A stretch of 64,000 bases of DNA from Planctomycetia bacterium (GCA_021414115.1 JAIOPD010000015.1:5424-69423); one strand, 5' to 3'. Counted from the first letter of the stretch, positions 2,479 through 17,370 are shown. A program made the numbers and translations. Notes: a model not told the origin generated them from the letters alone.

Positions 2479-3972
2479 ATGCCGCAACTCGTTCCCTGCC
2501 CGCTGTTCATCGGCGGCGAATGGATCACCGTCTCCGGAGTGCCGACCACACCGGTCCACAACCCATCGGTCGGCGAGGTGATCGCCGAGACGCCGATGTG
2601 CGGCGGTGATGTCGTCGATCAGGCCGTGCAGGCGGCGGCAGAGGCGTTTCCCAAGTGGATGGAGACACCGCCGGTTGAACGGGCCCGGATCCTGTTTCGC
2701 CTCAAGGTGCTCCTCGAAGACCACTTCGACGAACTCGCGCGGAGCGTGACCACCGAGCACGGCAAGACGCTCGCCGAGGCGCGGGGGGACGTTCGCCGCG
2801 GCCTCGAGAACATCGAGTTTGCCTGCGGCGCGCCGAGCCTGCTCATGGGCGAGTCGGCCGAGAACATCGCCCGGGGCATCGACTGCGACTCGATCCGTCA
2901 GCCGCTCGGGGTCGTGGCCGGCATCACCCCCTTCAACTTTCCCGCGATGGTGCCGCTCTGGATGTGGCCGATCGCCGTCGCCTGCGGCAACACCTTCGTG
3001 CTCAAGCCGAGCGAGAAGGTGCCGCTGACGACCAACCGGATCGCCGAGCTGGCCCGGCAGGCCGGCCTGCCGCCGGGCGTGCTCAACGTGGTGCATGGCG
3101 GCCGCGAGGCGGTGACGGCGATCCTCGAGCATCCCACGGTCAAGGCGATCTCGTTCGTCGGCTCGACGCCGATCGCCCGCGAGATCCACCGGATCGGCAC
3201 GCTGCACGGCAAGCGGGTGCAGGCCGCCGGCGGCGCCAAGAACTTCGTGCTCGTGATGCCCGACGCCGACGTCACGCACTCATCGACGGGCATTCTCGAA
3301 GCCGCCTTCGGCTGTGCCGGCGAGCGGTGCATGGCGGGCTCGACCGCCGTGGCGATCGGCAAGGCAGCCGAGACGGTGCTGCCGCAGCTCGTCGACATCG
3401 TCTCGAAGATCAGGGTGGGCCCCACCGACCGGGATCCCGAGGCGCAGATGGGGGCGGTGATCACCCGGCAGCATGCCGAACGGGTGTGCGAGCTGATCTC
3501 ACAGGCCGCGGGCCAGGGGGCGAAGCCGCTCACCGATGGCCGCACGACGAAGGTGGCGGCGGCCCCCGGAGGATTCTTCGTGGGCCCCACCGTGCTCGAC
3601 CACGTGCGGCCCGACATGATCACGATGCAGGAAGAAGTCTTCGGCCCGGTGCTCAACGTCGTGCGGATGGACGATCTCGACGCCGCGATCGAACTGGCCA
3701 ACACGTCGGCCTACGGCAACGGCGCGGCCATCTTCACTCGCAGCGGCAAGGCGGCTCGCGAGTTTCGCCACCGCGTGCAGGCGGGCATGGTCGGGATCAA
3801 CATCGGCGTGCCCGCACCGATGGCCTTCTTCCCGTTCAGCGGCTGGCATGCGTCGTTCTTCGGCGACCTCCACCTGCAGGGCCGCGAGAGCGTGGCCTTC
3901 TACACGCAACAGAAGGTGACGACGACCCGCTGGTTCAGTTACGGCGAGGGTTCGATCTGGGCCGATCGCTGA
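2479..3972 (+). CDS. mmsA: CoA-acylating methylmalonate-/malonate-semialdehyde dehydrogenase
   Basis: ORF 2407..3972 with the ATG at 2479. Aldehyde dehydrogenase motifs FVLKPSEKVP and catalytic-Cys context FGCAGERCMA. The N-terminal FIGGEW...HNPS pattern is typical of MmsA. Confidence 0.9.
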   Translation: MPQLVPCPLFIGGEWITVSGVPTTPVHNPSVGEVIAETPMCGGDVVDQAVQAAAEAFPKWMETPPVERARILFRLKVLLEDHFDELARSVTTEHGKTLAEARGDVRRGLENIEFACGAPSLLMGESAENIARGIDCDSIRQPLGVVAGITPFNFPAMVPLWMWPIAVACGNTFVLKPSEKVPLTTNRIAELARQAGLPPGVLNVVHGGREAVTAILEHPTVKAISFVGSTPIAREIHRIGTLHGKRVQAAGGAKNFVLVMPDADVTHSSTGILEAAFGCAGERCMAGSTAVAIGKAAETVLPQLVDIVSKIRVGPTDRDPEAQMGAVITRQHAERVCELISQAAGQGAKPLTDGRTTKVAAAPGGFFVGPTVLDHVRPDMITMQEEVFGPVLNVVRMDDLDAAIELANTSAYGNGAAIFTRSGKAAREFRHRVQAGMVGINIGVPAPMAFFPFSGWHASFFGDLHLQGRESVAFYTQQKVTTTRWFSYGEGSIWADR

Positions 3973-3988
3973 TCCTTCGGGGGCACCC

Positions 3989-5371
3989 ATGGCACTGCTC
4001 ATCACGAATGCCGACATCGTCAATGCCGACACCCGGTATACGGCCGACATTCTCTGCGAAGGCGACACGATCACCCGGATCGACCGGGGCATCGCCCCGC
4101 CCCCCGACGCCGAGGTGATCGACGCGACGGGGAAGCATGTCTTCCCGGGCTTCATCGACCCCCACACCCACATCTACCTGCCCTTCATGGGCACGTTCTC
4201 GAAGGACGACTACGAGACGGGCACGAAGGCGGCCCTCGTCGGCGGCACGACCACGATCTTCGAGATGGTCTGCCCGGCCCGCGACATGCCCGCCGCGGAG
4301 GGCTTCGACCTGTGGACATCGCAGGCGGAAGGCAAGGCCTGCTGCGACTACTCGTTTCACATGGGCGTGACCCGGTTCGATGCCGACGCGGCCGCTCAGC
4401 TCCGCGAGATCGTCCGGCAGGGCGTCGGCAGCTTCAAGGTGTTTCTCGCCTACAAGGGAGCCTTCGGCGTGGATGACGCCGAACTCTGGCAGACGCTGAC
4501 ACTGGCCCGAGAGTTGGGCGTGGTCGTCACCGCGCACTGCGAAAATGAAACCCTCGTGGCCGCGCTGCAGAAGCAGCTGCTCGCAGCCGGCCGCACCGGC
4601 CCCGACGCCCATCACGACAGCCGCCCGCCCCGCGTCGAGGCCGAGGGCGTGCACCACCTGATGACCTTTGCGCAACTCACGGGCGCCCGCGTCTACATCG
4701 TGCACCTGTCGTGCCGCGAGGCGCTCGACGAGGCCGTCGCCGCGCGGCAGCGCGGCGTGGACGTCTCCGTGGAGACGCTCATCCAATACCTCGTCCTCGA
4801 CAAGACCTGGGCCGAGAAGCCCGGCTTCGAGGGGGCGAAGTACGTGATGTCGCCGCCGCTCCGCGATGCCGCGAATCAGGCCGTGCTCTGGAACGGCCTG
4901 CGGAGCGGACTCGTGAACACGGTCGGCACCGATCATGCCCCGTTCGACTTCGTGACCCAGAAGCCGATGGGCAAAGACGACTTCACGAAGATCCCCAACG
5001 GCATCCCGTCGATCGAGGACCGCATCAACCTCCTCTGGACCCACGGCGTAAAGACGGGCCGGCTTTCCCTGCAGCAGTTCGTCGCCGTGGCGAGCACCAA
5101 CGCGGCGAAGATCTTCGACCTCTTCCCCCGCAAGGGCGTGATCCAGCCGGGTGCCGACGCCGACCTCGTGATCTACGACCCGTCCTACCGCGGCACGCTC
5201 TCGGCCAAGACGCAGACGCAGAACGTCGACTACAACGCCTTCGAGGGCTTTCCGATCGAAGGCCGACCGGCCGTGGTCACGGTCCGCGGCGAGGTGGCAG
5301 TTCGCGACGGCCGCTTCTGCGGCACCGTCGGCCGCGGACGATTCCTCAAGCGAACGCCCTCTCCGGTGTGA
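3989..5371 (+). CDS. hydA: dihydropyrimidinase / D-hydantoinase
   Basis: ATG at 3989. Cyclic amidohydrolase motifs PGFIDPHTHIYLPFMG, FKVFLAYKG (carboxylated Lys context) and GTDHAPF. Confidence 0.9.
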   Translation: MALLITNADIVNADTRYTADILCEGDTITRIDRGIAPPPDAEVIDATGKHVFPGFIDPHTHIYLPFMGTFSKDDYETGTKAALVGGTTTIFEMVCPARDMPAAEGFDLWTSQAEGKACCDYSFHMGVTRFDADAAAQLREIVRQGVGSFKVFLAYKGAFGVDDAELWQTLTLARELGVVVTAHCENETLVAALQKQLLAAGRTGPDAHHDSRPPRVEAEGVHHLMTFAQLTGARVYIVHLSCREALDEAVAARQRGVDVSVETLIQYLVLDKTWAEKPGFEGAKYVMSPPLRDAANQAVLWNGLRSGLVNTVGTDHAPFDFVTQKPMGKDDFTKIPNGIPSIEDRINLLWTHGVKTGRLSLQQFVAVASTNAAKIFDLFPRKGVIQPGADADLVIYDPSYRGTLSAKTQTQNVDYNAFEGFPIEGRPAVVTVRGEVAVRDGRFCGTVGRGRFLKRTPSPV

Positions 5372-5390
5372 TGTCGCGCAGCGCTCTCCC

Positions 5391-6863
<1,473 letters not shown>

Positions 6864-6913
6864 AGCGCATCCGACTTTCGTCTATCGCCAGACGGGGACC
6901 CGAGTGGTGGGTC

Positions 6914-7046
6914 GGGGCTTCCCGTTCCCCGAGAGCCGGACGTTCGCTCCGTCCATCCTGGACTCCGCTCACTCGGATGCCGCCTGCGCTTCGCCATCCT
7001 GGCTGCGCTTGGCGGCAACGCCGGCTCTCGGGGCACGGGCAGCCCC
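6914..7046 (+). repeat. family A palindromic repeat (A1), about 133 bp with terminal inverted repeats
   Basis: Ends ggggcttcccgttccccgagagcc (6914..6937) and ggctctcggggcacgggcagcccc (7023..7046) are complementary at 22/24 positions. The core ggacgttcgctccgtccatcctggactccgctc...cgccatcctggct aligns with the copies at 32226..32362 (reverse) and 45731..45869. Confidence 0.75.
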
Positions 7047-7073
7047 TCGCGGGTGCTCGCTTGTGTTTGTCGC

Positions 7074-7176
7074 TCGGGAAGCCCGGAGCGCGAGCGACGG
7101 GTAAACGGGTCGCGAGGTGGGCCAGCGGCGGAGAGCTGGTTGAGGTTGAGGACTGAGCTCCCGTGCTCACGCTCGA
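7074..7176 (+). repeat. family B palindromic repeat (B1)
   Basis: tcgggaagcccggagcgcgagcgacgggtaaacggg ... cccgtgctcacgctcgag. The two arms are imperfectly complementary. It lies immediately next to A1. Confidence 0.55.
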
Positions 7177-7233
7177 GAGCGCATCCGACGTTGGTGTCTT
7201 GCAGACGCTCGTCGAGCGTTCGCCGACTCTCTA

Positions 7234-7266
7234 CGCCTACCCGTTCTGGATTGCCAAAACAACGCT
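7234..7266 (+). repeat. family C short repeat (C1)
   Basis: cgcctacccgttctggattgccaaaacaacgct resembles cgcctacccgccctggtttgccaaaacgacgct at 29021. The associated motif agagcgcatccg also occurs at 6862, 7177 and, reversed, at 29064. Confidence 0.45.
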
Positions 7267-8317
7267 ACGCATCGCGCTCATCTGCGTCGAGGCGGTGGCG
7301 GGCGAGGGTGGCCCACGGACTTTCCGGCGCGAGGGCGAGGAACCGCCGGAGGTGGTGCGCCGCCTCGTCGTCGAGCCCCGTCTCCTGCAACACGCCCGCC
7401 ATGTGCCAGTGGGCGTCGGCGTAGGCCGGCTCCTGGCGGAGAACGCCTTCGAGGGCGGCCAGGGCGAGTTCGTGTTCACCGAGTTCCGCGAGCACGCAGC
7501 CGAGGCTCGAGCGGGCTTGCAGATGGTCGGGATCGAGCTCGATCACCGCGTAGTAGCGCTCACGTGCGGCCGTCAGATCGCCCGCCCGGTAGAGCAGCTC
7601 GGCCAGCATGAACATCACGCGGGCCGTCGGGCCCTGGGCCTGGAGCACGGCGCGGAGCGCCTCGGCGGCCTCGACAAACTCTCCCGCAGCCTCGAGGTCG
7701 TCGGCGAGATCGAGAATCTCGGCCACATCGCCGGGAGCGGGAGGATTCGTCAGCTCGTCGCTCTCCGGCAGTTGCTCGCGAACCGCCGAGCGTCGGGCCG
7801 GCAGCCCGACGACGGTCGGCATCTCCGGCGGTTCTGGCTGGGCCAGTGGCGCCGTGTAGAAGACGAACTGCAACTGGCCTCCCGCGGCGAGCAGCCGTGA
7901 GCCGTCGTCGAGGCTCAGCCGCCGGCCGTCGATCCGCACCCGGCCCAAGGCGGCGGCCGCCGCCCGGGCACCGCCCGGTGCGAGGTCGGCGAGCTTGGCG
8001 TCGATCTCACGCAGCGAGAGCCCTTGGTCGAGGAGTCGGGCCAGATGGCGGCCCACGACGAGCTGCTCGAAATCGAACCATTCGACCGAGCCCACACCCT
8101 TCACGACCTCGAGCAGTCCGCCGCGGACCCAGTGCCGGATGGCTGCCGGTGGCACGTCGAGCACCGCCGCCATCATCGCGGACGTATGGAGCCGGCGCAC
8201 GCCCGGATGGTCCGCGGGATGCTCGTCGGCGAGCAAGGCCCGCGGGGAAGGCCGGCTGCGGCGCGACGGCAGCAGCCCGCGCTGAGGTGTCTGGTCGTCC
8301 TTGACCTCGTGTGACAT
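7265..8317 (-). CDS. MerR-like HTH domain protein with C-terminal TPR repeats
   Basis: In-frame ATG at 8317 within ORF 7265..8689. HTH-like MMAAVLDVPPAAIRHWVRGGLLE. The C-terminal half has TPR-like repeats (AEALRAVLQAQG..., AELLYRAGDLTAARERYYAVIELDPDH, ...CVLAELGEHELALAALEGVLRQEP). The start is uncertain. Confidence 0.7.
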   Translation of the reverse strand: MSHEVKDDQTPQRGLLPSRRSRPSPRALLADEHPADHPGVRRLHTSAMMAAVLDVPPAAIRHWVRGGLLEVVKGVGSVEWFDFEQLVVGRHLARLLDQGLSLREIDAKLADLAPGGARAAAAALGRVRIDGRRLSLDDGSRLLAAGGQLQFVFYTAPLAQPEPPEMPTVVGLPARRSAVREQLPESDELTNPPAPGDVAEILDLADDLEAAGEFVEAAEALRAVLQAQGPTARVMFMLAELLYRAGDLTAARERYYAVIELDPDHLQARSSLGCVLAELGEHELALAALEGVLRQEPAYADAHWHMAGVLQETGLDDEAAHHLRRFLALAPESPWATLARHRLDADERDA

Positions 8318-8450
8318 GCATGAGCTTCCGGCGGCGATCGCAGGAATGTACTCCGCGCATGCACTGCTGCCAAACGCTGAGCGCAGTATGGGGAGAAGCT
8401 GCTCGGCAACGGTCACACCAAGCGAGCACCGCGGGCCGCAGCGGGCGAGC

Positions 8451-10166
8451 TCAGGTCGTGTGATCGGTAGGGATCGGCCGGAGAAAGCCGGTGCCCGACG
8501 TGCCGGAGGCCGGCACATCGCGAGGATCGTGAACCGGCGGAGCGGGCTCGACGGCGGGGCCCAGCGGGGCGATGGTCGGCGCATTCTCGGCGGGAACGGT
8601 TGCCGCCGGCCCGGGAGTGGGAGCAGAAGGGATGCTCTTGATGCGGCTCGGCGAGTCCGCATCGGTCGGGGTGGCCGGCTTCTCCGCACGATAGGCCTCG
8701 GGTTCGGTCTTCGAGGGGGCGGGGCGCTCAGGCATCTCGGCTGACTTCCAGCCGTCGGCGGCTGGAGCAGGGGTGCCGGCCGGCTTTTCGCTGAACGTCT
8801 TCATCGGACCGCCATCGGCCGGTGCCGAGGCGGGCGGCGTGGTGGGGCGAGCCGACGATGCGGCGGGTGCGGGAATCGTCTCGTAGCTCGCGGCCGCGGC
8901 AGGCATGGCCGGGGCAGCCGTGGCGGGAGCGTTCATCGCGGGAGCGGCGGGCACGGGGTTGCCACAGGGATCGAGTGGCACCTTCGTGACCACGGTCCGC
9001 GGCATGCGGACGGTGTAGGTGTAGGGGGTCTTCTTCTCGACCACCCGCGGCACCTGCATCGTCCGCTCCTCGGTGACGTACTTCATCACCTGCACCTGCA
9101 CGGGCTCGACCTTTTCCTCGGTGACGTACTTGCACACCTGGAAGGCGACCTGCCGAACCTGCTCCTCTGGAACCATTTTCATGACCTGGACGGGCACCTT
9201 GTTGTCGACCCGCTCCACGACCTTCCGCACGGTCTGCACGGGCACCTGCCGCACGGCGGTCTCGGCCACCATCTTCATGCTCTGCACGGGCACCTGCTGC
9301 ACCACCTGCTCGTCGATGTAGCGCACGGTCTGCACCGGCACCTTCTGGGTGACCACGCGATTGACCATCGTGGTCTCGGGCACCTGCACCGGCGTGTAGG
9401 TTGGCTGGTAGACGCGATTGACTTGATTGACCACCGCGCCGGGCGTCATCACCCAGGCGTAGCCGCCCCGCTGCCAGACGGCCAGACCGGTGAGGGGATC
9501 GACGACCCAGCCGCCCGGTGCGTAGGCGAGACCGGTCGAGCCCGGCGTGACGACTGGCGTGACGGTGTCGACGGCCTGACTGCCGACCGAGTAGGCGGTT
9601 CGCATCTGGGTGACTGGCTCGGAGACGGTGTAGGCCTGCTCACGCTCGCTCGTCTCGTAGACGGGCTTTCGCACCGTGGTCACCTGCTGCTGCATCACGG
9701 TCTCGTAGACCGGCTTCATCACGGTGTATTGCTCCTCGCGGGTGGCCGTTTCGACCACATCGCGGGTGACGTCGTAGCTGCGGTCCTCGACCACGGTCTC
9801 GTAAACCGGCTTCATGACCGTGAAGCGTTCCTCGCGGGTCTGCGTCTCCCAGACCGGCCGCTGCACTGTGTAACGACGCTCTTGCGTCTGAGTCTCCATG
9901 ACCGGCTTCTGGACGGTGTAAGACTTCGTGTCGTAGACGGTTTCGGTGGACACCCGGTAGGCCGTTACCTGCTGCTCGTCATAGACGGTCTTGTAGTCGA
10001 GGCGGTACGTCTGCGTGGGGACCGCCACGGAGGCGGGCGCGGCACCGCAGCCGCACTCTGCGGTCGCGCTTTGCATGACGGGAGCCTGCGGGGCGAGCAC
10101 GAGGCCCGCGCAAACAAGCGACTGCAGGCGGCGGAGAAAGGACGGTCGGGTACGGTTCGTGATCAT
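8451..10166 (-). CDS. secreted repeat protein (YTV-type repeats, then VPVQ repeats, then a Pro/Ala-rich tail)
   Basis: ATG at 10166 with GGAGAG upstream. Signal-like N-terminus. About seven units of roughly 16 aa (YTVQKPVMETQTQERR / YTVQRPVWETQTREER / FTVMKPVYETVVEDRS ...), then repeated (Q)VPVQ(T/S)(V/M)(R/K) units, then a low-complexity P/A/T tail. Confidence 0.85.
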   Translation of the reverse strand: MITNRTRPSFLRRLQSLVCAGLVLAPQAPVMQSATAECGCGAAPASVAVPTQTYRLDYKTVYDEQQVTAYRVSTETVYDTKSYTVQKPVMETQTQERRYTVQRPVWETQTREERFTVMKPVYETVVEDRSYDVTRDVVETATREEQYTVMKPVYETVMQQQVTTVRKPVYETSEREQAYTVSEPVTQMRTAYSVGSQAVDTVTPVVTPGSTGLAYAPGGWVVDPLTGLAVWQRGGYAWVMTPGAVVNQVNRVYQPTYTPVQVPETTMVNRVVTQKVPVQTVRYIDEQVVQQVPVQSMKMVAETAVRQVPVQTVRKVVERVDNKVPVQVMKMVPEEQVRQVAFQVCKYVTEEKVEPVQVQVMKYVTEERTMQVPRVVEKKTPYTYTVRMPRTVVTKVPLDPCGNPVPAAPAMNAPATAAPAMPAAAASYETIPAPAASSARPTTPPASAPADGGPMKTFSEKPAGTPAPAADGWKSAEMPERPAPSKTEPEAYRAEKPATPTDADSPSRIKSIPSAPTPGPAATVPAENAPTIAPLGPAVEPAPPVHDPRDVPASGTSGTGFLRPIPTDHTT

Positions 10167-10232
10167 GGGTTCTCTCCTGGAAAGACCCTTCGAGACTAAT
10201 CCGGTCTACGCAGGCCACAAGCGGTGAGTTGA

Positions 10233-10260
10233 GAAAAACTTCCGGTTTTTTCCCGGAAAA
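10233..10260 (-). terminator. weak candidate intrinsic terminator downstream of the DUF1854 gene
   Basis: The minus strand reads TTCCGG-GAAAAAA-CCGGAA followed by GTTTTTCTC. The stem is only 6 bp, so support is weak. Confidence 0.35.
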
Positions 10261-10372
10261 AAGGCCTCCCGTCCCGCAGGAACGGTGCAACCCGTCCATC
10301 TTACGGCCCCGGGGAAGGGTCTTCGCACGATGCGGGTCAACCTGGCGAGTCGGCGCAGGCTGCGGACCTGGG

Positions 10373-10879
10373 CTACGCCAACGTCTCGAGGAGGCGGCGG
10401 CTGTGGGAATCAAGAGCGGCCACTCGCGGGATCCGGTATCTGGTCCCGAACGTGTCGGTGATGAACACGCTGCCGTCCGGCTGGCGGGCCACGTCGTCGG
10501 CGTGCGCAACGGTGAACCGATGCGGCCCGCGATCGGTGTGGACTGCCCATTCGGTCGGTTCCGTGTCGGACACCGTCTCGATCCGCTCGATCACCGGCAG
10601 AAACTCCCGTTGGGCGAGTTCGCGATCAAGCAGTGCCTTGAGCGCGGCGGGGAGCGCGGCCAGAGACTCCACCCACGCTAGTTCACCACCGTCGGCGGCG
10701 ACGACGGCCACCGGCCCCGCTGACGCCGTCACCGGAAAGGCGCGAAGCACATCGACGTCCGCATGTCGCCGGCCCTCCGCGTCGATGAGATCGAGCCGTC
10801 CATGGGCATGCCGCTCCAGCCGCCAGCCTTCGGGCGAATCGCCGGTGATGGTCGCGAGGGGGTTGGCATGCGTGTTCAT
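10373..10879 (-). CDS. DUF1854 family protein (cyanophycin-locus associated)
   Basis: ATG at 10877..10879. The pattern GRLDLIDAEGRRH...VLRAFPV...GELAWVESLAALP...ELAQREFLPVIERIE...PTEWAVHTDRG...FITDTFGTRYRI...LDSHSRRLLE matches my memory of DUF1854 proteins. It lies 13 nt downstream of the ABC gene. Confidence 0.8.
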   Translation of the reverse strand: MNTHANPLATITGDSPEGWRLERHAHGRLDLIDAEGRRHADVDVLRAFPVTASAGPVAVVAADGGELAWVESLAALPAALKALLDRELAQREFLPVIERIETVSDTEPTEWAVHTDRGPHRFTVAHADDVARQPDGSVFITDTFGTRYRIPRVAALDSHSRRLLETLA

Positions 10880-10892
10880 GAGGAACCGTGTT

Positions 10893-13229
10893 TCATGCGG
10901 AAGGGGCGGTCTCGCTGGCAGCGGCCGCCTCCTCGGCGGCTTTCATCTGGGACCGGTAGAGTCGGGCATACATGCCGTCGACGGCGAGCAGATCGTCGTG
11001 CGTGCCCATTTCCACGATGCGGCCGGCGTCGAGGACGACAAGCCGGTTGGCGCGGCGGAGCGTCGAGAGCCGATGGGCGATGGCGATCGTGGTCCGCCCC
11101 GTCACCAGCCGGTCGATCGCTGCCTGGATGATCGACTCGGTCTCGGCATCGACGCTCGAAGTGGCCTCGTCGAGGACGAGGATACGCGGGTCGACGAGCA
11201 GAGCGCGGGCAATCGAGAGCCGCTGCCGCTCACCGCCGGAGAGGCCGCCGCCGCGCTCGCCGACCCGCGAATCGTAGGCCAACGGCTGCGAGAGGATGAA
11301 GTCGTGGGCTCCGGCGGCCCGGGCCGCGGCGACGATCTTCTCGCGGGCTGCGGCAGGCCGCCCGTAGGCGATGTTGTCGGCGATGGTGCCGAAGAAGAGG
11401 AACGGCTCCTGAAGCACGCAGCCGAGATTTCGATGGTAGTCGGCGATATCGACGTCGCGGAGATCGACACCATCGACGCGGATCGAGCCGCTCGACGGGT
11501 CGTAGAACCGGCACACGAGATTGGCGAGTGTCGACTTGCCGGACCCGCTCGTGCCCACCAGACCGATCATTTCACCCGGTTCGATCACGAGGTCGATGCC
11601 GTGGAGCACCTCGCGGGCCCCGTAGCGGAAATGCACGCCCGAGACCTCGATCCGCCCTGCCACGCGGCCGAGCCTCACCGGCCGTGGGGCTTCGGCAACG
11701 GTCGGCTTGCAGTCGAGGATCTCGAAGATCCGCTGGGCACTCGCCGCCGCACGCTGGGTGGCCGGCACCATCCGGATCATCGATTCCACACGGCCGTAGA
11801 ACCGGGCGATGTAGGCGAGAAAGGCGGTCAGTCCGCCGACGGTCACGCTGCCGGAGAAGACGAGCCACGCACCGCAGGCCCAGACAACGAGCAGGCCGAT
11901 CTCGCTGAACAGGCTGACGAACGGGCCGCAGAACGACCAGACCACGTTGACGCGGTCGTTTGCCTCCAGCACTCGCTCGTTGGCGGTGACGAAGCGGTCG
12001 ATCTCCCGCGACTCCTGGGCGAACGCCTTGACGACACGGATGCCGGGAATCGTGTCGGCCAGCACGCTCGTCATGTCGCTCCAGGCGACGGCGGCCCTGG
12101 CGAAGCCGCGGCGGAGCCGTTCGCGGACCGCATAAATCAGCCAGACCACGAAGGGAAAGGGCACGAGCGTCAGCAGGGCCAGCAGCGGGTTGAGCCAGAT
12201 CAACACCGCCGCCGTGAGCGCCAGGAGCATCACGTTGGAGGCGAACTCGATCAGGTTCACCGACAGGAAAATGTTGATCTTGTCGGTGTCGCTGCCCACC
12301 CGGGACATCAAATCGCCCGTCCGCTTGCCCTGGAAGAAATCGAGCGAGAGCGACTGCATGTGGGCGTAGGTCCGCGTGCGCAGGCCCGCGGCGATGCGTT
12401 CGCTGACCCAGGCGAGCGTCCACGTTTGAATCCACGAGAGCAGCCACGCAGCGACGGCCGCGAGCAGGAGACCGCCGAGATACCACCAGACGAGGGAGAA
12501 CGGCACGTCCTTGCCGTTCTGTCTGGGGATCAACACGTCGTCCACCAGCGGCATCGTGAGATAGGGGGGCACGAGCGCCGCCGCCGTGCTCGCCAGCGAG
12601 AGCATGGCTCCAAGGATCGCCATACCCGCATGGGGCCTGGCGAAGGAGATGAGTCGGAAGAGTGGCCGCCACGAGGCCAAGCCGCCCGTTGCCCCCGCAT
12701 CGTCGGCCAGGCCGCGGGGCGCGGCGGCCGCCGGCTTCTCTTCGGTCTCCTCGACGTCGGCTGCCGCAGATGGCTGTCGGGCTTCTCGGAGGCCGTCGGG
12801 TTCGGTCAGCCCGTCGGGGCCACGCAGCCGCGAGTCGAAGGCGTCTTCAAGCGCGTGGATGGCAGGTGCCTTGGCGGGCGTGAACAGCCAGCGGGCCACG
12901 ATCCGGTCGCCTTGCGAGAGCTCCACGCGGCCCACCGCCGAACGCAACTGCACGTCGAGTCGGGTGGCGGCATCGATCGTCCACGAGCGGGGGCCGCCCG
13001 CCGTGCGTTCGCCGCCTTCCGCGGAGGCCGGCTCGTCGGCGATCACCCGCTTGGTTGTCAGCACGATCCAGCCGTCGCTGAACCGCAACTCCCCGTCGAG
13101 GTCGAAGCGTCCGATCGCCAGCACGGTCTCATCCGGCGCGATGACGACGTCCCCGTGCCAGGGAAGCCCGGACCCGACCAGGGCAGCTGGTGAGCCGACG
13201 TCAGGGGATCCGGAGGAAGGGGAGGTCAT
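10893..13229 (-). CDS. ABC exporter (fused permease and ATPase) with an extra N-terminal domain of about 200 aa
   Basis: ATG at 13229. Six-TM exporter domain. Walker A GTSGSGKST, signature LSGGERQR, Walker B ILVLDEATS, H-loop AIAHRL. The N-terminal soluble region (..FDLDGELRFSDGWIVLTTKRVIADEP..) is absent from plain MsbA-like exporters. Confidence 0.9.
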   Translation of the reverse strand: MTSPSSGSPDVGSPAALVGSGLPWHGDVVIAPDETVLAIGRFDLDGELRFSDGWIVLTTKRVIADEPASAEGGERTAGGPRSWTIDAATRLDVQLRSAVGRVELSQGDRIVARWLFTPAKAPAIHALEDAFDSRLRGPDGLTEPDGLREARQPSAAADVEETEEKPAAAAPRGLADDAGATGGLASWRPLFRLISFARPHAGMAILGAMLSLASTAAALVPPYLTMPLVDDVLIPRQNGKDVPFSLVWWYLGGLLLAAVAAWLLSWIQTWTLAWVSERIAAGLRTRTYAHMQSLSLDFFQGKRTGDLMSRVGSDTDKINIFLSVNLIEFASNVMLLALTAAVLIWLNPLLALLTLVPFPFVVWLIYAVRERLRRGFARAAVAWSDMTSVLADTIPGIRVVKAFAQESREIDRFVTANERVLEANDRVNVVWSFCGPFVSLFSEIGLLVVWACGAWLVFSGSVTVGGLTAFLAYIARFYGRVESMIRMVPATQRAAASAQRIFEILDCKPTVAEAPRPVRLGRVAGRIEVSGVHFRYGAREVLHGIDLVIEPGEMIGLVGTSGSGKSTLANLVCRFYDPSSGSIRVDGVDLRDVDIADYHRNLGCVLQEPFLFFGTIADNIAYGRPAAAREKIVAAARAAGAHDFILSQPLAYDSRVGERGGGLSGGERQRLSIARALLVDPRILVLDEATSSVDAETESIIQAAIDRLVTGRTTIAIAHRLSTLRRANRLVVLDAGRIVEMGTHDDLLAVDGMYARLYRSQMKAAEEAAAASETAPSA

Positions 13230-14214
13230 AAATGAGCCAGATGCGTCGCAGTCTGCGGAACGGCGGTGAACCGAGGGAAAACCTTCAATTTTAGGCGTTT
13301 ACGACTGGTTGCACGGGCTGGCCGCCCTCCAGCCACAGAAATTTGCGTGGCTTTCCGAACATGCCTAGATTACCGTCCGCTCCCGAAGCACAGTGCTGGA
13401 AACATCGCTTTGCCCGCTGGCCACGCGACCGCTCCCTGCAGTCTCGCCGCCGTACCCGCGTTTGTCTGCCGTTTCTGTAGAAATTTCCGACCCGCCTGCC
13501 GTCACTGGCCTTATTTTGCCACGCCCAACGGTCATCTTTTCCGCCATCCCAACCACCGGGATCCGCTCCGAGTCAGGGTTTTCGGCCATCACACTGGCCG
13601 CTGCCCGCTCAGCGGCCATTCGGCACACGACGTGCTTCTGCTCCGAGGCGTCGAAAAATCATTCGCAGTCGATGGCTGGAAGCGTAAACTCTGGCGATCG
13701 AACTGCGAAGACGGCCACGGGAAACCGGAGCCGGGCTTTTCGGCGATGCAGTGTCGGCCGGGCTTGTTCCGGAACGTGCTGCAGTTGGAATCATGGTGCC
13801 GCGAGGAACGGGTATCGCAAGCGAACGCGCGTCCGTGTGGCGTGCGGCGTTACCATCCGGCCTCGCGGTGTAGGAATCCTTTCGTCTCATGGCCACTTCG
13901 GCCGGTCGGTTGTCGGTGGGCTTCTGCTTCCCATTGTTCTCGAGCCTGTCCGCGAAGAATCGCTTCGCCGGAGGCATCTCTCCCGCGGCACCGGATTGCC
14001 AGCCGCCGCCCTGACGACCTCATTCGTCGGGTTCGTGCGGATGCCTGCCCAGGCAGGCAGGACTGTGCAGGCGACGCGCCGGCACAGTGCCGTTGTGAAC
14101 CGTGCGACCTCCTTTCCAGAACCATCCGTCGGAGTGTCCGGCGGCTGGAGGAGGCGCACACGACCAGACCCGCGCATGCGTCTGCGACCGGTCTAAGAGA
14201 ACTGTATTCCATCC

Positions 14215-17200
14215 ATGGAGATTCTTTCGCTCAAGGTCCTTCGCGGTCCCAATCAATGGGCATCGTTCCCCTGCCTGGAAGCCTGGGTCGATCTCGGCCG
14301 GCTGGAGGATTTCCCCTCCCACACGCTCCCTGGCTTCAATGAGCGGATCATGTCGTGGCTGCCCACCATGATCGAGCACCGCTGCTCGATCGGGACCCGC
14401 GGTGGTTTTTTCGAGCGGCTTCGTACGGGCACGTGGATGGGCCACGTTCTCGAGCACGTCACGCTCGAACTCCAGACACTCGCCGGCACGCCGGTGGGGT
14501 ATGGCCGCGCCCGCGAGGCCAAGACCCGCGGTGTCTACAAGGTCGTGATCGAATACAAGGAGGAGAAGTTCGCGATCGAGTGCTTTCACACGGCCCACCG
14601 GCTGCTGATGGCTGCGATCGACGGCACCATCTTCGACGTCACCTGCGAGCTGAAGCGGCTCCGCAAACTGCTCCTCGACGTGCAACTCGGTCCGAGCACG
14701 AGGTCGATCGTCGAGGCTGCGGCGGCACGGGGCATTCCACCGCAGCGGCTGACCGAGGGATCGCTCGTGCGGCTCGGACACGGGGCCAAGCAGCGGCGGA
14801 TTCTTGCCGCGGAGACCGATCGAACAGGCGCGGTCGCCGAGACGATCGCGCAGGACAAGGAACTCACCCGGACGCTTCTGGCGGAGTCGGGCATCCCCGT
14901 CCCCGAGGGCCGGCCTGTCAGCGACGCGGCCGACGCGTGGGCCGTCGCCGAGGAGATCGGTGGCCCTGTCGTGATCAAGCCGCGGTATGGCAACCAAGGC
15001 CGTGGTGTGTCGGTGAACCTCGTCACCCGTGACGAGGTGGAAAAGGCCTGGGCTCTCGCCAGCGAGCAGGATGCAGCGGTCGTCGTCGAGCGGTTCGTGA
15101 GTGGTGCCGATTACCGCGTGCTGGTGGTGGGCTCTCGCATGGTTGCGGCGGCGCGCCGGCACCCGCCGCTCGTCGTCGGCGACGGCTGCTCGACGGTGAG
15201 GCATCTCGTCGACAAGGTCAACGAGGATCCGCGGCGGTGCGGCGACCATGCCACGTCGCTGAGCCCGATGGTGATCGACGAGGTCGCCGTCGCGGTCCTC
15301 GCCGAGCAGGGGCTCGCCGCGGAGGCGGTCCCGGCAGCGGGACGGGCCGTCTTGCTCCGGCGCAACGCGAACCTGAGCACCGGCGGTTCGGCGGAGGACG
15401 TGACCGACATCGTCCATCCGGAGGTGGCCGCCCGGGCCATCGAGGCTGCCCGGATCATCGGCCTCGACGTGGCGGGCATCGACATGGTGATGGAAGACAT
15501 CACCATGTCGCTCGAATCCCAGCGGGGCGTCGTGATCGAGGTCAACGCGGCTCCGGGGCTGCGGATGCATCTGGAACCGACGGTCGGCACGCCCCGCAAT
15601 GTCGGCGCCGCGATCGTCGACGCCCTTTTCGGCCCCGGCGACGACGGCCGCATTCCCACCGCCGCCGTCACCGGCACCAACGGCAAGACGACCGTCGTCC
15701 GTCTGATCGCGCACCTCGCCGCCACGGGTGGTGCCACCGTCGGCTCGACGTGCACTGAAGGCGTCTGGATCAACGGCCGACAGATCGACTCGGGCGACTG
15801 TAGCGGCCCGAAAAGCGCCCGCCGCGTGCTCGCGAATCCGGCGGTCACCACGGCCGTGCTCGAGACCGCACGTGGGGGCATTCTTCGCGAGGGCTGCGGT
15901 TTCGACTGCTGCGACGTCGCGGTCGTGACGAACATCGCTTCAGGCGATCACCTCGGTATCGCCGAGATCGACACTCCCGAGCAGATCGCCTGGGTGAAGG
16001 GAGCGATCGTCGCGGCCGTGCGGCCCAGCGGCGCCGCCGTACTCAATGCCGCGGATCCGCTGGTCGTGGGGATGAAGAAGTGGTGCAAGGGCCAGGTGGT
16101 CTACTTCGCCCTCGACCCCGCCAACCCCGTGCTCGTCGAGCACCTCGCACAGGGCGGCCTCGCGGCCACTGTCCGCGAGGGCTGGATCGTGCTCTGTGAC
16201 GGTCCCCGTGAGACGCGACTGGCGCATCTCGACCGCGTGCCGCTCGTGCACCGCGGCCTGGTCGACTTCCAGGTGGAGAACGTGCTGGCCAGCGCCGCGG
16301 CGGCCTGGCGGCTCGGCGTGCCGCTGGAACTGGTTCGGCTCGGTCTCGAGAGTTTTTCGTCCGGCTCGTCCGGCTCGCCTGGTCGATTCAACCTCCTCGA
16401 TCTCCAGGGCGCCGCGGTCGTGGTCGACTACGGCCACAACGTACCGTCGCTCGAGCGGATCTGCGGCTCGCTGGCGAAGTTTCCGCACCCGCGGCGGACG
16501 GCGGTCTACTCCGCGGCAGGCGACCGTCGCGACGAAGACCTCATCGCTCAGGGCCGGCTCCTCGCCGCGACCTTTGATCGGGTGGTGATCTACGAAGACG
16601 CCTACATCCGCGGCCGCGAGCCCGGCGAGATCACGAGAATCATCTCGCAGGGCATCCAGGCAGGGATGGCGGCAGAAAAACCGGTCGTGATCGAGGCCGG
16701 GGGCGATTGGGCGACGAGTGCCGCGCTCGTGCTCGACGCCGTCGGCGCGGGCGATCTCGTGCTGCTGCAGGCCGACTCGATCGAGCAGACGATGCCCTGG
16801 CTCACAGAACGCTACGGCAGCCGGCTCAAGGACTCCGTCTTCGACGAGTTCGCCGGGATGGCGGCGGGTGATGCTTCTGCGATCGCTCCCAAGCCGGGCG
16901 AGCCGCTGGAGCTGAAGGTCGGGCGTCTCGGCCGGGGTGTCAGTGCGACCCGCGACATCACGGCCGGCGAAACGGTGCTGAAGACCTGGGGACAGCAGTC
17001 CCCGCAACGGACGCGCTACACCGTCCAGGTCGATCGGCAGACCCACATCGTGCCGGACGGGGTGGCCGTGCTCGTGAACCACTCGTGCGAGCCGAACTGC
17101 GGCGTTGTCATCCGCTCCGGCGTCAAGGAGATCGAGATCCGCGCCCTGCGGCCGATCGCCGCGGGCGAGGAGATCACCGTCGACTACGAGACCTTCGAGG

Positions 17201-17370
17201 AAGAGGTCGTGCATCTCGGCGGGCCGTGCCGCTGCGGTGCGGCGACGTGCCGCGGCCGGGTGGCCGGCTACAAGCACCTGCCGGCCGACGTGAAGGCCCG
17301 GTACGGCGTCTTCATCGCCGAGTATTTGCGGATCCTCGAGTCGGAGACGTCTCTGCCCGTCGGCGTGTGA
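14215..17370 (+). CDS. cphA: cyanophycin synthetase fused to a C-terminal SET-domain methyltransferase
   Basis: A single 1051-codon ORF with the ATG at 14215. CphA-like N-terminus MEILSLKVLRGPNQWA..., an ATP-grasp region and the Mur-ligase P-loop TGTNGKTT. From about nt 16903 it carries SET motifs: GRGVSATRDITAGETV, NHSCEPN (17077..17097), EEITVDY and post-SET CRCGAATCRG. Confidence 0.92.
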   Translation: MEILSLKVLRGPNQWASFPCLEAWVDLGRLEDFPSHTLPGFNERIMSWLPTMIEHRCSIGTRGGFFERLRTGTWMGHVLEHVTLELQTLAGTPVGYGRAREAKTRGVYKVVIEYKEEKFAIECFHTAHRLLMAAIDGTIFDVTCELKRLRKLLLDVQLGPSTRSIVEAAAARGIPPQRLTEGSLVRLGHGAKQRRILAAETDRTGAVAETIAQDKELTRTLLAESGIPVPEGRPVSDAADAWAVAEEIGGPVVIKPRYGNQGRGVSVNLVTRDEVEKAWALASEQDAAVVVERFVSGADYRVLVVGSRMVAAARRHPPLVVGDGCSTVRHLVDKVNEDPRRCGDHATSLSPMVIDEVAVAVLAEQGLAAEAVPAAGRAVLLRRNANLSTGGSAEDVTDIVHPEVAARAIEAARIIGLDVAGIDMVMEDITMSLESQRGVVIEVNAAPGLRMHLEPTVGTPRNVGAAIVDALFGPGDDGRIPTAAVTGTNGKTTVVRLIAHLAATGGATVGSTCTEGVWINGRQIDSGDCSGPKSARRVLANPAVTTAVLETARGGILREGCGFDCCDVAVVTNIASGDHLGIAEIDTPEQIAWVKGAIVAAVRPSGAAVLNAADPLVVGMKKWCKGQVVYFALDPANPVLVEHLAQGGLAATVREGWIVLCDGPRETRLAHLDRVPLVHRGLVDFQVENVLASAAAAWRLGVPLELVRLGLESFSSGSSGSPGRFNLLDLQGAAVVVDYGHNVPSLERICGSLAKFPHPRRTAVYSAAGDRRDEDLIAQGRLLAATFDRVVIYEDAYIRGREPGEITRIISQGIQAGMAAEKPVVIEAGGDWATSAALVLDAVGAGDLVLLQADSIEQTMPWLTERYGSRLKDSVFDEFAGMAAGDASAIAPKPGEPLELKVGRLGRGVSATRDITAGETVLKTWGQQSPQRTRYTVQVDRQTHIVPDGVAVLVNHSCEPNCGVVIRSGVKEIEIRALRPIAAGEEITVDYETFEEEVVHLGGPCRCGAATCRGRVAGYKHLPADVKARYGVFIAEYLRILESETSLPVGV

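Follow-up and report, generated by a model that had tools for sequence, protein, structure and literature searches.

Why should a cyanophycin synthetase end in a methyltransferase domain? The question is raised by a gene, referred to here as cphA-SET, in a 64,000-nucleotide stretch of DNA from a freshwater Planctomycetia bacterium (GCA_021414115.1 JAIOPD010000015.1:5424-69423); 'the window' denotes this whole stretch. An earlier note on this DNA had read positions 14215..17370 as a single uninterrupted open reading frame (ORF) of 1051 codons, in which a cyanophycin synthetase (CphA) of three-part layout is fused in frame to a SET domain, and we find exactly this ORF. From sequence and fold comparisons, the SET domain is most likely a tailoring domain, which would modify the amino acid that forms the side chains of cyanophycin, whether already within the polymer or immediately before it is ligated. 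The gene and its parts are as follows.

14215..17370, + strand: cphA-SET gene; ATG start, 1051 codons plus stop, one ORF; protein MCE9629399.1
14215..14694, + strand: CphA1 N domain, residues 1-160 (Pfam PF18921), with the Cx19HxxEH primer-generating metallopeptidase motif
14695..15654, + strand: G domain (ATP-grasp), residues 161-480, for extension of the poly-Asp backbone; placed from Pfam and the CphA1 alignment
15655..16812, + strand: M domain (Mur-ligase-like; Mcore plus the mobile Mlid), residues 481-866, for addition of the side-chain amino acid
16813..16920, + strand: linker, residues 867-902; the least conserved segment, with low model confidence
16921..17274, + strand: SET plus post-SET domain, residues 903-1020; placed from Pfam SET, motifs and AlphaFold fold
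17275..17367, + strand: two C-terminal helices, residues 1021-1051, typical of the BurB-like bacterial SET subfamily

The synthetase and its SET domain

The exact protein is already in NCBI nr (MCE9629399.1; P0121), where it is named 'cyanophycin synthetase [Planctomycetia bacterium]'. Pfam places the Cyanophycin_syn N domain at residues 24-135 (7e-39), RimK/ATP-grasp at 212-316, Mur_ligase_M at 485-696 and Mur_ligase_C at 723-851. For residues 1-866, NF010623 (1185.2 bits; cutoff 877) and TIGR02068 (1056.8 bits; cutoff 850), the two NCBIfam equivalog models of cyanophycin synthetase, both exceed the curated cutoff, which bears out the three-part layout. The earlier note had proposed a profile search for the SET tail; Pfam SET (PF00856) matches residues 906-991 well above its gathering threshold of 22.4 bits (E 3.5e-14, 53.5 bits), and the tail scanned alone reaches 5.4e-16 and 59.4 bits against the same threshold. 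The motifs that the note had quoted, TGTNGKTT, GRGVSATRDITAGETV, NHSCEPN (17077..17097), EEITVDY and CRCGAATCRG, all lie where it had put them.

We aligned the CphA part to CphA1 of Synechocystis (SuCphA1, PDB 7LG5; E about 1e-211) and read it against the residue lists of the structural papers. The N-G-M architecture of SuCphA1 and of Thermosynechococcus TeCphA1 (PDB 7WAC) aligns over residues 1-866 of the window protein, which, unlike canonical CphA1 with its short variable tail, has about 185 extra C-terminal residues made up of linker and SET. A Cx19HxxEH zinc site in the N domain defines the primer-independent CphA1 subtype (PMC9262961). Here C57 is followed, after 19 residues, by H77-V-L-E-H81 (nt 14443-14457), and C57, H77, E80 and H81 are invariant in the clade alignment (A3). 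The catalytic and substrate residues of the TeCphA1 G domain are E215, K220, K261, H267, R309, R323, N394 and R458 (PMC9427784). All those listed for TeCphA1 and SuCphA1 are kept except the P-loopG histidine, His267 in TeCphA1, which is Gln261 throughout the window clade. This histidine is reported to be important for the acyl-phosphate step in TeCphA1 (PMC9427784). Gln261 lies in KPRYGNQGRG (residues 256-265, nt 14980-15009), and because the Gln is invariant across the whole planctomycete CphA clade, SET-less members included, G-domain activity is probably retained. In the M domain, the P-loop TGTNGKTT occupies residues 486-493 (nt 15670-15693), and the Mg ligands (T514 and E550 among them) are kept, as are R724 and H741 of Mlid. 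Mlid is mobile, with a charged patch that is thought to guide cyanophycin (PMC9427784). By profile and residue comparison, residues 1-866 are a complete CphA1 of the primer-independent type.

The SET domain also appears catalytically competent, with intact motifs and the mark of purifying selection. It carries GxG, W925-G926, (N)HSCxPNC at 955-962, GEE-x3-DY at 984-991 and C1005-x-C1007-x4-C1012. Across 26 species, GxG, W-G, HSCxPNC, GEE..DY and CxCx4C-RGR are invariant, and the cysteines of the putative post-SET zinc site (C958, C1005, C1007 and C1012) are invariant or nearly so. The ratio of non-synonymous to synonymous substitution rates (dN/dS, Nei-Gojobori) is 0.04-0.26 in the SET domain, the range of the N, G and Mlid domains; it reaches 0.55 in the linker, where 17% of columns are invariant, and falls to 0.03-0.14 in the C-terminal helices (residues 1021-1051), which are among the most constrained parts of the protein. 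The linker, of roughly 35 aa, looks like a short, flexible connection that would tether the SET domain to the end of the mobile Mlid. AlphaFold (AF2) models the SET region with a predicted local distance difference test score (pLDDT) of 93.1 and a predicted template-modelling score (pTM) of 0.88, and 368 SET structures in the PDB match this model at E<=1e-3 (Foldseek).

History of the fusion

We scanned one genome per GTDB species with the junction and SET region as query. Among these species representatives, 26 metagenome-assembled genomes (MAGs) of Planctomycetota, mostly from freshwater lakes, match across the CphA C-terminus, linker and SET domain. The window protein aligns to all 26 in a single frame by tblastn, at 67-93% identity; 24 of these alignments span residues 1-1039 or more, and the other two end at contig ends. 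Uninterrupted fusion ORFs of 1048-1052 aa number 25, including that of locus L001, and the frame likewise crosses the CphA/SET junction in fragments at the contig edges of other metagenomes. The in-frame fusion that the earlier note had described is therefore real: the same frame continues without interruption in 25 further genomes. Pairwise distances in the SET part track those in the CphA part (r = 0.87, Mantel 0/2000), with SET evolving about 1.5 times faster, and this correlation indicates one old fusion that has been vertically inherited.

The fusion is also well represented in public databases. A full-length protein search returns more than 70 protein clusters (90% identity) of 1044-1079 aa with a precomputed Pfam SET match, and their named members are all called only 'cyanophycin synthetase'. 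The earlier note had allowed that the architecture might prove common and already characterised; with its more than 70 public clusters it is not rare, but we found no description of it. Nor did we find, in line with what the note had stated, any account of a CphA-SET architecture or of methylated cyanophycin in surveys of cyanophycin genes, papers on CphA1 structure, a review of bacterial SET proteins or keyword searches, although the amidoligase/ATP-grasp survey of Iyer et al. 2009 may hold an earlier mention of ATP-grasp/SET fusions. The architecture appears to be undescribed, even though its sequences are public and numerous under the name 'cyanophycin synthetase'.

Some close relatives do not have the SET domain. 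They form two groups, one of about 912 aa whose CphA part is 86-90% identical to that of the window protein, and one of about 888 aa at 78-80% identity; both have the same synteny and end in a short Pro/Ala-rich tail, with no separate SET gene and no SET remnant in their DNA. In a neighbour-joining tree of the CphA part, built without bootstrap, both SET-less groups branch from within the SET-bearing clade, whose deepest lineages have the domain, and the identity values agree. On this tree the fusion is ancestral in the clade, and SET has been cleanly lost at least two times. Because it has been lost in some lineages without change to the synthetase, SET would be an accessory to the enzyme and not essential to it. 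We looked for CphA positions that change with SET loss, as a hint of a contact surface or of specificity, and no change is common to both loss lineages; in the ~888-aa group, changes are weakly enriched in the final helix of Mlid (836-866).

A second, older form of the fusion is a CphA-like-SET protein of about 950-990 aa, about 50% identical to that of the window. It is carried by L032 (MBL8797139.1; P0247), by the P0258 cluster (237 members) and by the indel-ridden contig L004. In the DNA of L032 and L004, its G domain is without the P-loop and the G-omega aspartate-recognition module (NANLSTGG region), and the N-domain HxxEH, the M-domain P-loop and the SET domain are intact. A complete cphA follows directly in both, as read in the DNA: in L032 the CphA-like-SET gene lies at 3676-6639 and cphA at 6924-9524, and in L004 the two lie at 5680-8567 and 8632-11210. 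The cphA of L032 is without the HxxEH site. This arrangement looks like sub-functionalisation, in which SET remains on the copy whose N domain would bind and cleave polymer and whose M domain would ligate side chains, and not on the copy that extends the backbone. Its retention on this paralogue would tie SET to polymer binding or side-chain ligation rather than to backbone elongation. It is possible that the paired CphA-like-SET and cphA products form a hetero-oligomer.

The SET subfamily and what it may modify

The nearest solved relative of the SET part, both by sequence (E 7.7e-15) and by fold (Foldseek rank 1, template-modelling score (TM) 0.64/0.68 over 155 columns), is BurB, at 28-33% identity; the match indicates a shared subfamily, not an orthologue. 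BurB, or MSMT, is a 172-aa SET methionine S-methyltransferase of Burkholderia thailandensis (PDB 9L4T/9L4V) that S-methylates free L-methionine; main-chain contacts hold the Met, binding of S-adenosylmethionine (SAM) seals the pocket, and the enzyme is reported to be a tetramer in solution and a dimer in the crystal (PMC12542666). The two have in common small size, a post-SET CxCx4C, C-terminal helices, HSCxPN plus DY and a similar amino-acid-binding segment, in which R70-L-H72-T73-L-Q of BurB aligns with T933-R-Y/H-T-V/M-Q of the window protein. BurB stands alone in a gene cluster for dimethylsulfoniopropionate (DMSP)/malleicyprol, whereas the window SET is fused to a polymer synthetase. Several side chains that line the Met pocket differ (S88, M132, R133 and H138 of BurB correspond to A951, H1000, L1001 and R1006), and since BurB contacts Met through its main chain, the sequence is not diagnostic here. 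BurB is proof that a SET domain of this kind can act on a non-protein amino-acid substrate.

The lysine methyltransferases MLL, NSD, ASH1L and SETD2 are almost as close in fold (E 1e-9 to 1e-8), so fold alone cannot separate a peptide-lysine substrate from a small-molecule one. SET1/MLL, NSD, ASH1L, SETD2 and viral vSET have the SET plus post-SET fold (TM 0.55-0.62) and the SAM-binding and catalytic motifs in common with the window SET. Unlike histone and protein lysine methyltransferases, however, the window SET is without pre-SET/AWS, WDR5-type partners or chromatin-reader domains, and it is a bacterial domain joined to an enzyme of metabolism.

When 1.84 billion representative proteins were scanned exhaustively with HMMER, the SET subfamily turned up, at 42-50% identity, fused to other enzymes. 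These are:

P0288: ornithine/arginine decarboxylase
P0364: L-Lys 6- / L-Orn 5-monooxygenase
P0327 (WP_394827290.1): nonribosomal peptide synthetase (NRPS) C-A-PCP-TE module of the cultured myxobacterium Pendulispora albinea
P0293: M29 aminopeptidase
P0344: polysaccharide pyruvyl transferase
P0330: SDR
P0373: GNAT
P0365 (WP_267037604.1): Streptomyces phenylalanine hydroxylase
P0281: D-Ala-D-Ala-ligase-type (Ddl) ATP-grasp

Single-ORF fusions of ATP-grasp and SET can also be read in the DNA of a Gemmatimonadales MAG (L068:4951-6435) and a Lewinellaceae MAG (L080:4981-6426). These join a Ddl-type ATP-grasp to one or two SET domains and adjoin a further Ddl-like ATP-grasp or SET gene; in phyla other than that of the window, they represent another way, independently arisen, of joining SET to an amino-acid ligase. 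By far the most of the partners work in amino-acid chemistry, with basic amino acids recurring, and this pattern speaks for a tailoring role in which the substrate would derive from an amino acid and would not be a protein. It suggests a widespread metabolic tailoring family of SET domains, of which BurB would be the sole characterised member. The description of SET domains as protein-lysine methyltransferases in the earlier note is in this light too narrow: the methyltransferase hallmarks are present, but with BurB as nearest relative and with these amino-acid-enzyme fusions the restriction to protein lysine does not stand.

Two further arrangements turned up in these searches. In a Neptuniibacter MAG (L042), a stand-alone SET gene (5899-6372) is directly followed by a 752-aa ORF (6404-8662) with a CphA-G-like ATP-grasp, 26% identical to residues 186-573 of the window protein and bearing an NWSTGG motif; another ATP-grasp lies upstream. 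The top-scoring proteins in the representative library are tandem SET proteins with 5-8 SET domains of the same subfamily, namely P0241 (1479 aa), P0242 (1449 aa) and P0244 (1415 aa).

For the window protein we tentatively favour, at a little short of an even chance, the reading in which SET methylates a side-chain residue of nascent cyanophycin on the polymer and in cis. A SAM-using SET domain tethered to Mlid would methylate the pendant residue of the growing chain. With its free alpha-carboxylate and free side-chain terminus, this residue would resemble a free amino acid, a likeness through which BurB-like recognition could be reconciled with a polymer substrate. Some CphA1 enzymes incorporate Lys (PMC10206079). 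The epsilon-amine of a lysine attached by CphA1 in place of arginine would have the best chemical precedent as methyl acceptor; arginine would be a possible target, one without precedent for SET. The product would be a methylated polymer of altered charge, solubility or resistance to cyanophycinase. The earlier note had named the basic side chains of the polymer as one possible target, a reasonable suggestion that the context strengthens.

Several considerations weigh against methylation on the polymer. Arginine is the normal side chain, and we know of no SET enzyme that methylates guanidinium; lysine is incorporated by CphA1 inefficiently. A pocket of the BurB type, sealed around a free amino acid, might be unable to admit a polymer-bound residue. 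Clean loss of SET has occurred at least twice in close relatives, and the M domain of SET-bearing proteins is not distinguishable from that of SET-less ones, T551A and D634N alone separating the ~912-aa group. Because the M domain looks alike with or without SET, there is no sign of a different side chain. Finally, the full-length AlphaFold model (pLDDT 74, pTM 0.51) gives no confident docking of SET, and the direction of the active site cannot be read from it.

Alternatively, SET could methylate free Lys, Orn, Arg or Met in the manner of BurB, with the product then serving as substrate of the M domain, so that methylated monomers would enter the polymer, or being released as a separate metabolite. 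BurB, the best match by sequence and fold, methylates free Met, and its substrate-binding segment aligns with the T933 segment of the window protein; other partners of the subfamily (ornithine decarboxylase, Lys/Orn monooxygenase and Phe hydroxylase) use free amino acids. We consider this rather unlikely all the same. The M domain is unchanged where SET has been lost and so does not appear specialised for a methylated monomer, and the identity to BurB is low (28-33%). In the genes scanned, at 0.6-40 kb of the window, we found no DMSP or malleicyprol-type partner genes, nor any downstream DMSP-pathway decarboxylase, aminotransferase or dehydrogenase of the BurI/BurD/BurE type. SET is kept on a paralogue that also keeps the N domain for polymer binding, and a polymer substrate explains this no less well.

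SET could instead methylate protein lysine, either on CphA itself, as auto-regulation that links SAM status to nitrogen storage, on a partner such as the ABC transporter or DUF1854 protein encoded next to cphA, or on an unrelated protein. This would be classical SET chemistry; the closeness in fold of MLL, NSD, ASH1L and SETD2 and the presence of a post-SET zinc knot are compatible with it, and NCBI names one paralogue 'SET domain-containing protein-lysine N-methyltransferase'. It is nevertheless unlikely. We found no conserved Lys specific to the CphA parts of SET-bearing lineages and no CphA position that co-varies with the presence of SET. Small-molecule enzymes predominate overwhelmingly among the fusion partners of the subfamily, and relatives without SET carry the ABC and DUF1854 genes just the same.

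Quite improbable, in our assessment, is a non-catalytic SET, whether a module for polymer binding, oligomerisation or granule organisation or a decaying relic. The repeated loss of SET without visible effect on CphA would suit such a role, and the oligomers of BurB make self-association plausible, but neither a relic nor a mere scaffold would keep NHSC, DY and the Cys knot, and all 26 species have the SAM-binding and catalytic motifs unchanged, at the low dN/dS given above.

The weakest alternative, for practical purposes refuted, is an artefact in which two genes are joined through a missed stop, a frameshift or a chimeric assembly: some public gene calls do list just a 115-aa SET protein (e.g. 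in GCA_026400965.1) and the long-read contig L004 has the gene in two pieces, but 25 independent assemblies agree on the frame, L004 is full of split genes of the kind typical of indel errors, and the 115-aa calls begin inside the SET fold. We had considered these stand-alone 115-aa proteins as possible proof of two genes; all start at an internal Met (..RTRHT-M-QVD..), and because this Met lies inside the fold they are gene-calling truncations. In L001 (GCA_026400965.1), where the call covers 6001-6348, the underlying DNA is an uninterrupted 1051-aa ORF. Public annotation of these genes is inconsistent: some records give the 115-aa SET only, most give 'cyanophycin synthetase', and MBL8797139.1 has the protein-lysine N-methyltransferase name quoted above.

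Methylation of the polymer by its own synthetase would have a parallel in nonribosomal peptide synthesis. The tailoring methyltransferase domains of NRPSs are Rossmann-fold class I enzymes, inserted in A domains, that act on carrier-tethered substrates. As in those systems, a SAM-dependent methyltransferase shares a polypeptide with ATP-dependent amino-acid ligation and could modify a building block or product in cis; unlike them, the window protein is a carrier-independent polymerase that ends in a class V (SET) fold. Descriptions of CphA1 have so far presented it as complete in itself, with three sites and no domain for tailoring. If these planctomycetes do make a methylated cyanophycin, no cyanophycin synthetase would have been found with a tailoring domain before, and no earlier SET would have been shown to act on a non-ribosomal polymer.

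A broader proposal, plausible but on balance doubtful, is that these planctomycetes make a hitherto unknown, enzymatically methylated cyanophycin (e.g. with beta-Asp-(N-epsilon-methyl)Lys or methyl-Arg units) and that BurB-like SETs are general small-molecule amino-acid methyltransferases plugged into ligases, decarboxylases, N-monooxygenases and NRPSs, rather than 'eukaryote-like' protein-lysine methyltransferases. Cyanophycin is a bacterial store of nitrogen and carbon as well as a bio-based polyamide, and its side chains set its solubility and uses. A built-in methyltransferase raises the possibility of natural chemical diversity in cyanophycin, of engineered cyanophycins that are methylated, permanently charged or more soluble, and of a store that is protected from foreign cyanophycinases. 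It further strengthens the view, first raised by BurB, that many bacterial SETs may be metabolic enzymes and not mimics of eukaryotic chromatin modifiers; if so, thousands of annotations as 'SET domain-containing protein-lysine N-methyltransferase' would have to be re-read.

The cyanophycin locus and a leader RNA

The cphA-SET gene is a single-gene unit within a recognised cyanophycin locus, whose other features are as follows.

10373..10879, - strand: 'cyanophycin metabolism-associated DUF1854 protein' (NF052234, 151.5 bits; cutoff 150)
10893..13229, - strand: 'cyanophycin metabolism-associated ABC transporter' (NF052233, 1031 bits; cutoff 880), divergent from cphA
13834..14186, + strand: structured non-coding leader, a candidate cis-regulatory RNA, within the 13230-14214 intergenic region and ending ~29 nt before the cphA ATG

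The ABC and DUF1854 genes are conserved in relatives, and this pair of ABC exporter and DUF1854 goes unmentioned in two bioinformatic surveys of cyanophycin genes. Genes for MlaD, an ABC ATPase and MlaE, and then ClpB, lie downstream in convergent orientation. No cyanophycinase, isoaspartyl dipeptidase or SAM-cycle gene turned up in the gene scan of the window, which covered 0.6-40 kb.

The ~1 kb between the ABC transporter gene and cphA is non-coding, with no codon periodicity in its substitutions, and its last 350-430 nt are 74-89% identical across 13 species, both SET-bearing and SET-less. The predicted fold of this leader is multi-branched, with 79 pairs in 16 helices. In the alignment from which the structure was itself derived, 93% of cells are paired, against 37-45% in slid controls, and compensatory changes occur at 28 pairs, a number that neither slid controls (5-9) nor shuffles (13 +/- 2.3; 0/500) reach. 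The structure is placed on the + strand by its G·U pairs, and the apex GGCGACGCGCC is invariant. The leader has no match in Rfam at E<=1, and a simple scan of the region found no sigma-70-like promoter and no intrinsic terminator. We propose it as a candidate for a new riboswitch-like or regulatory RNA for cphA.

An ORF of 267 aa on the + strand in this region (13393..14196) was considered as an operon partner and rejected, as its translation is low-complexity junk, with low GC content at third codon positions and no codon periodicity. A public metagenome (L087:6227-6982) lists the same ORF as a hypothetical protein of 251 aa. Its apparent protein conservation in tblastn arises because the nucleotides of the leader are conserved.

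Farther from cphA, an amidohydrolase gene at 3989 was considered as isoaspartyl dipeptidase (IadA) and proved to be a dihydropyrimidinase instead (TIGR02033, 554 bits). It adjoins a gene for a permease of the cytosine/purine/allantoin family (3989-6863, + strand), so that a pyrimidine/hydantoin nitrogen-scavenging pair lies ~8 kb from the cyanophycin locus.

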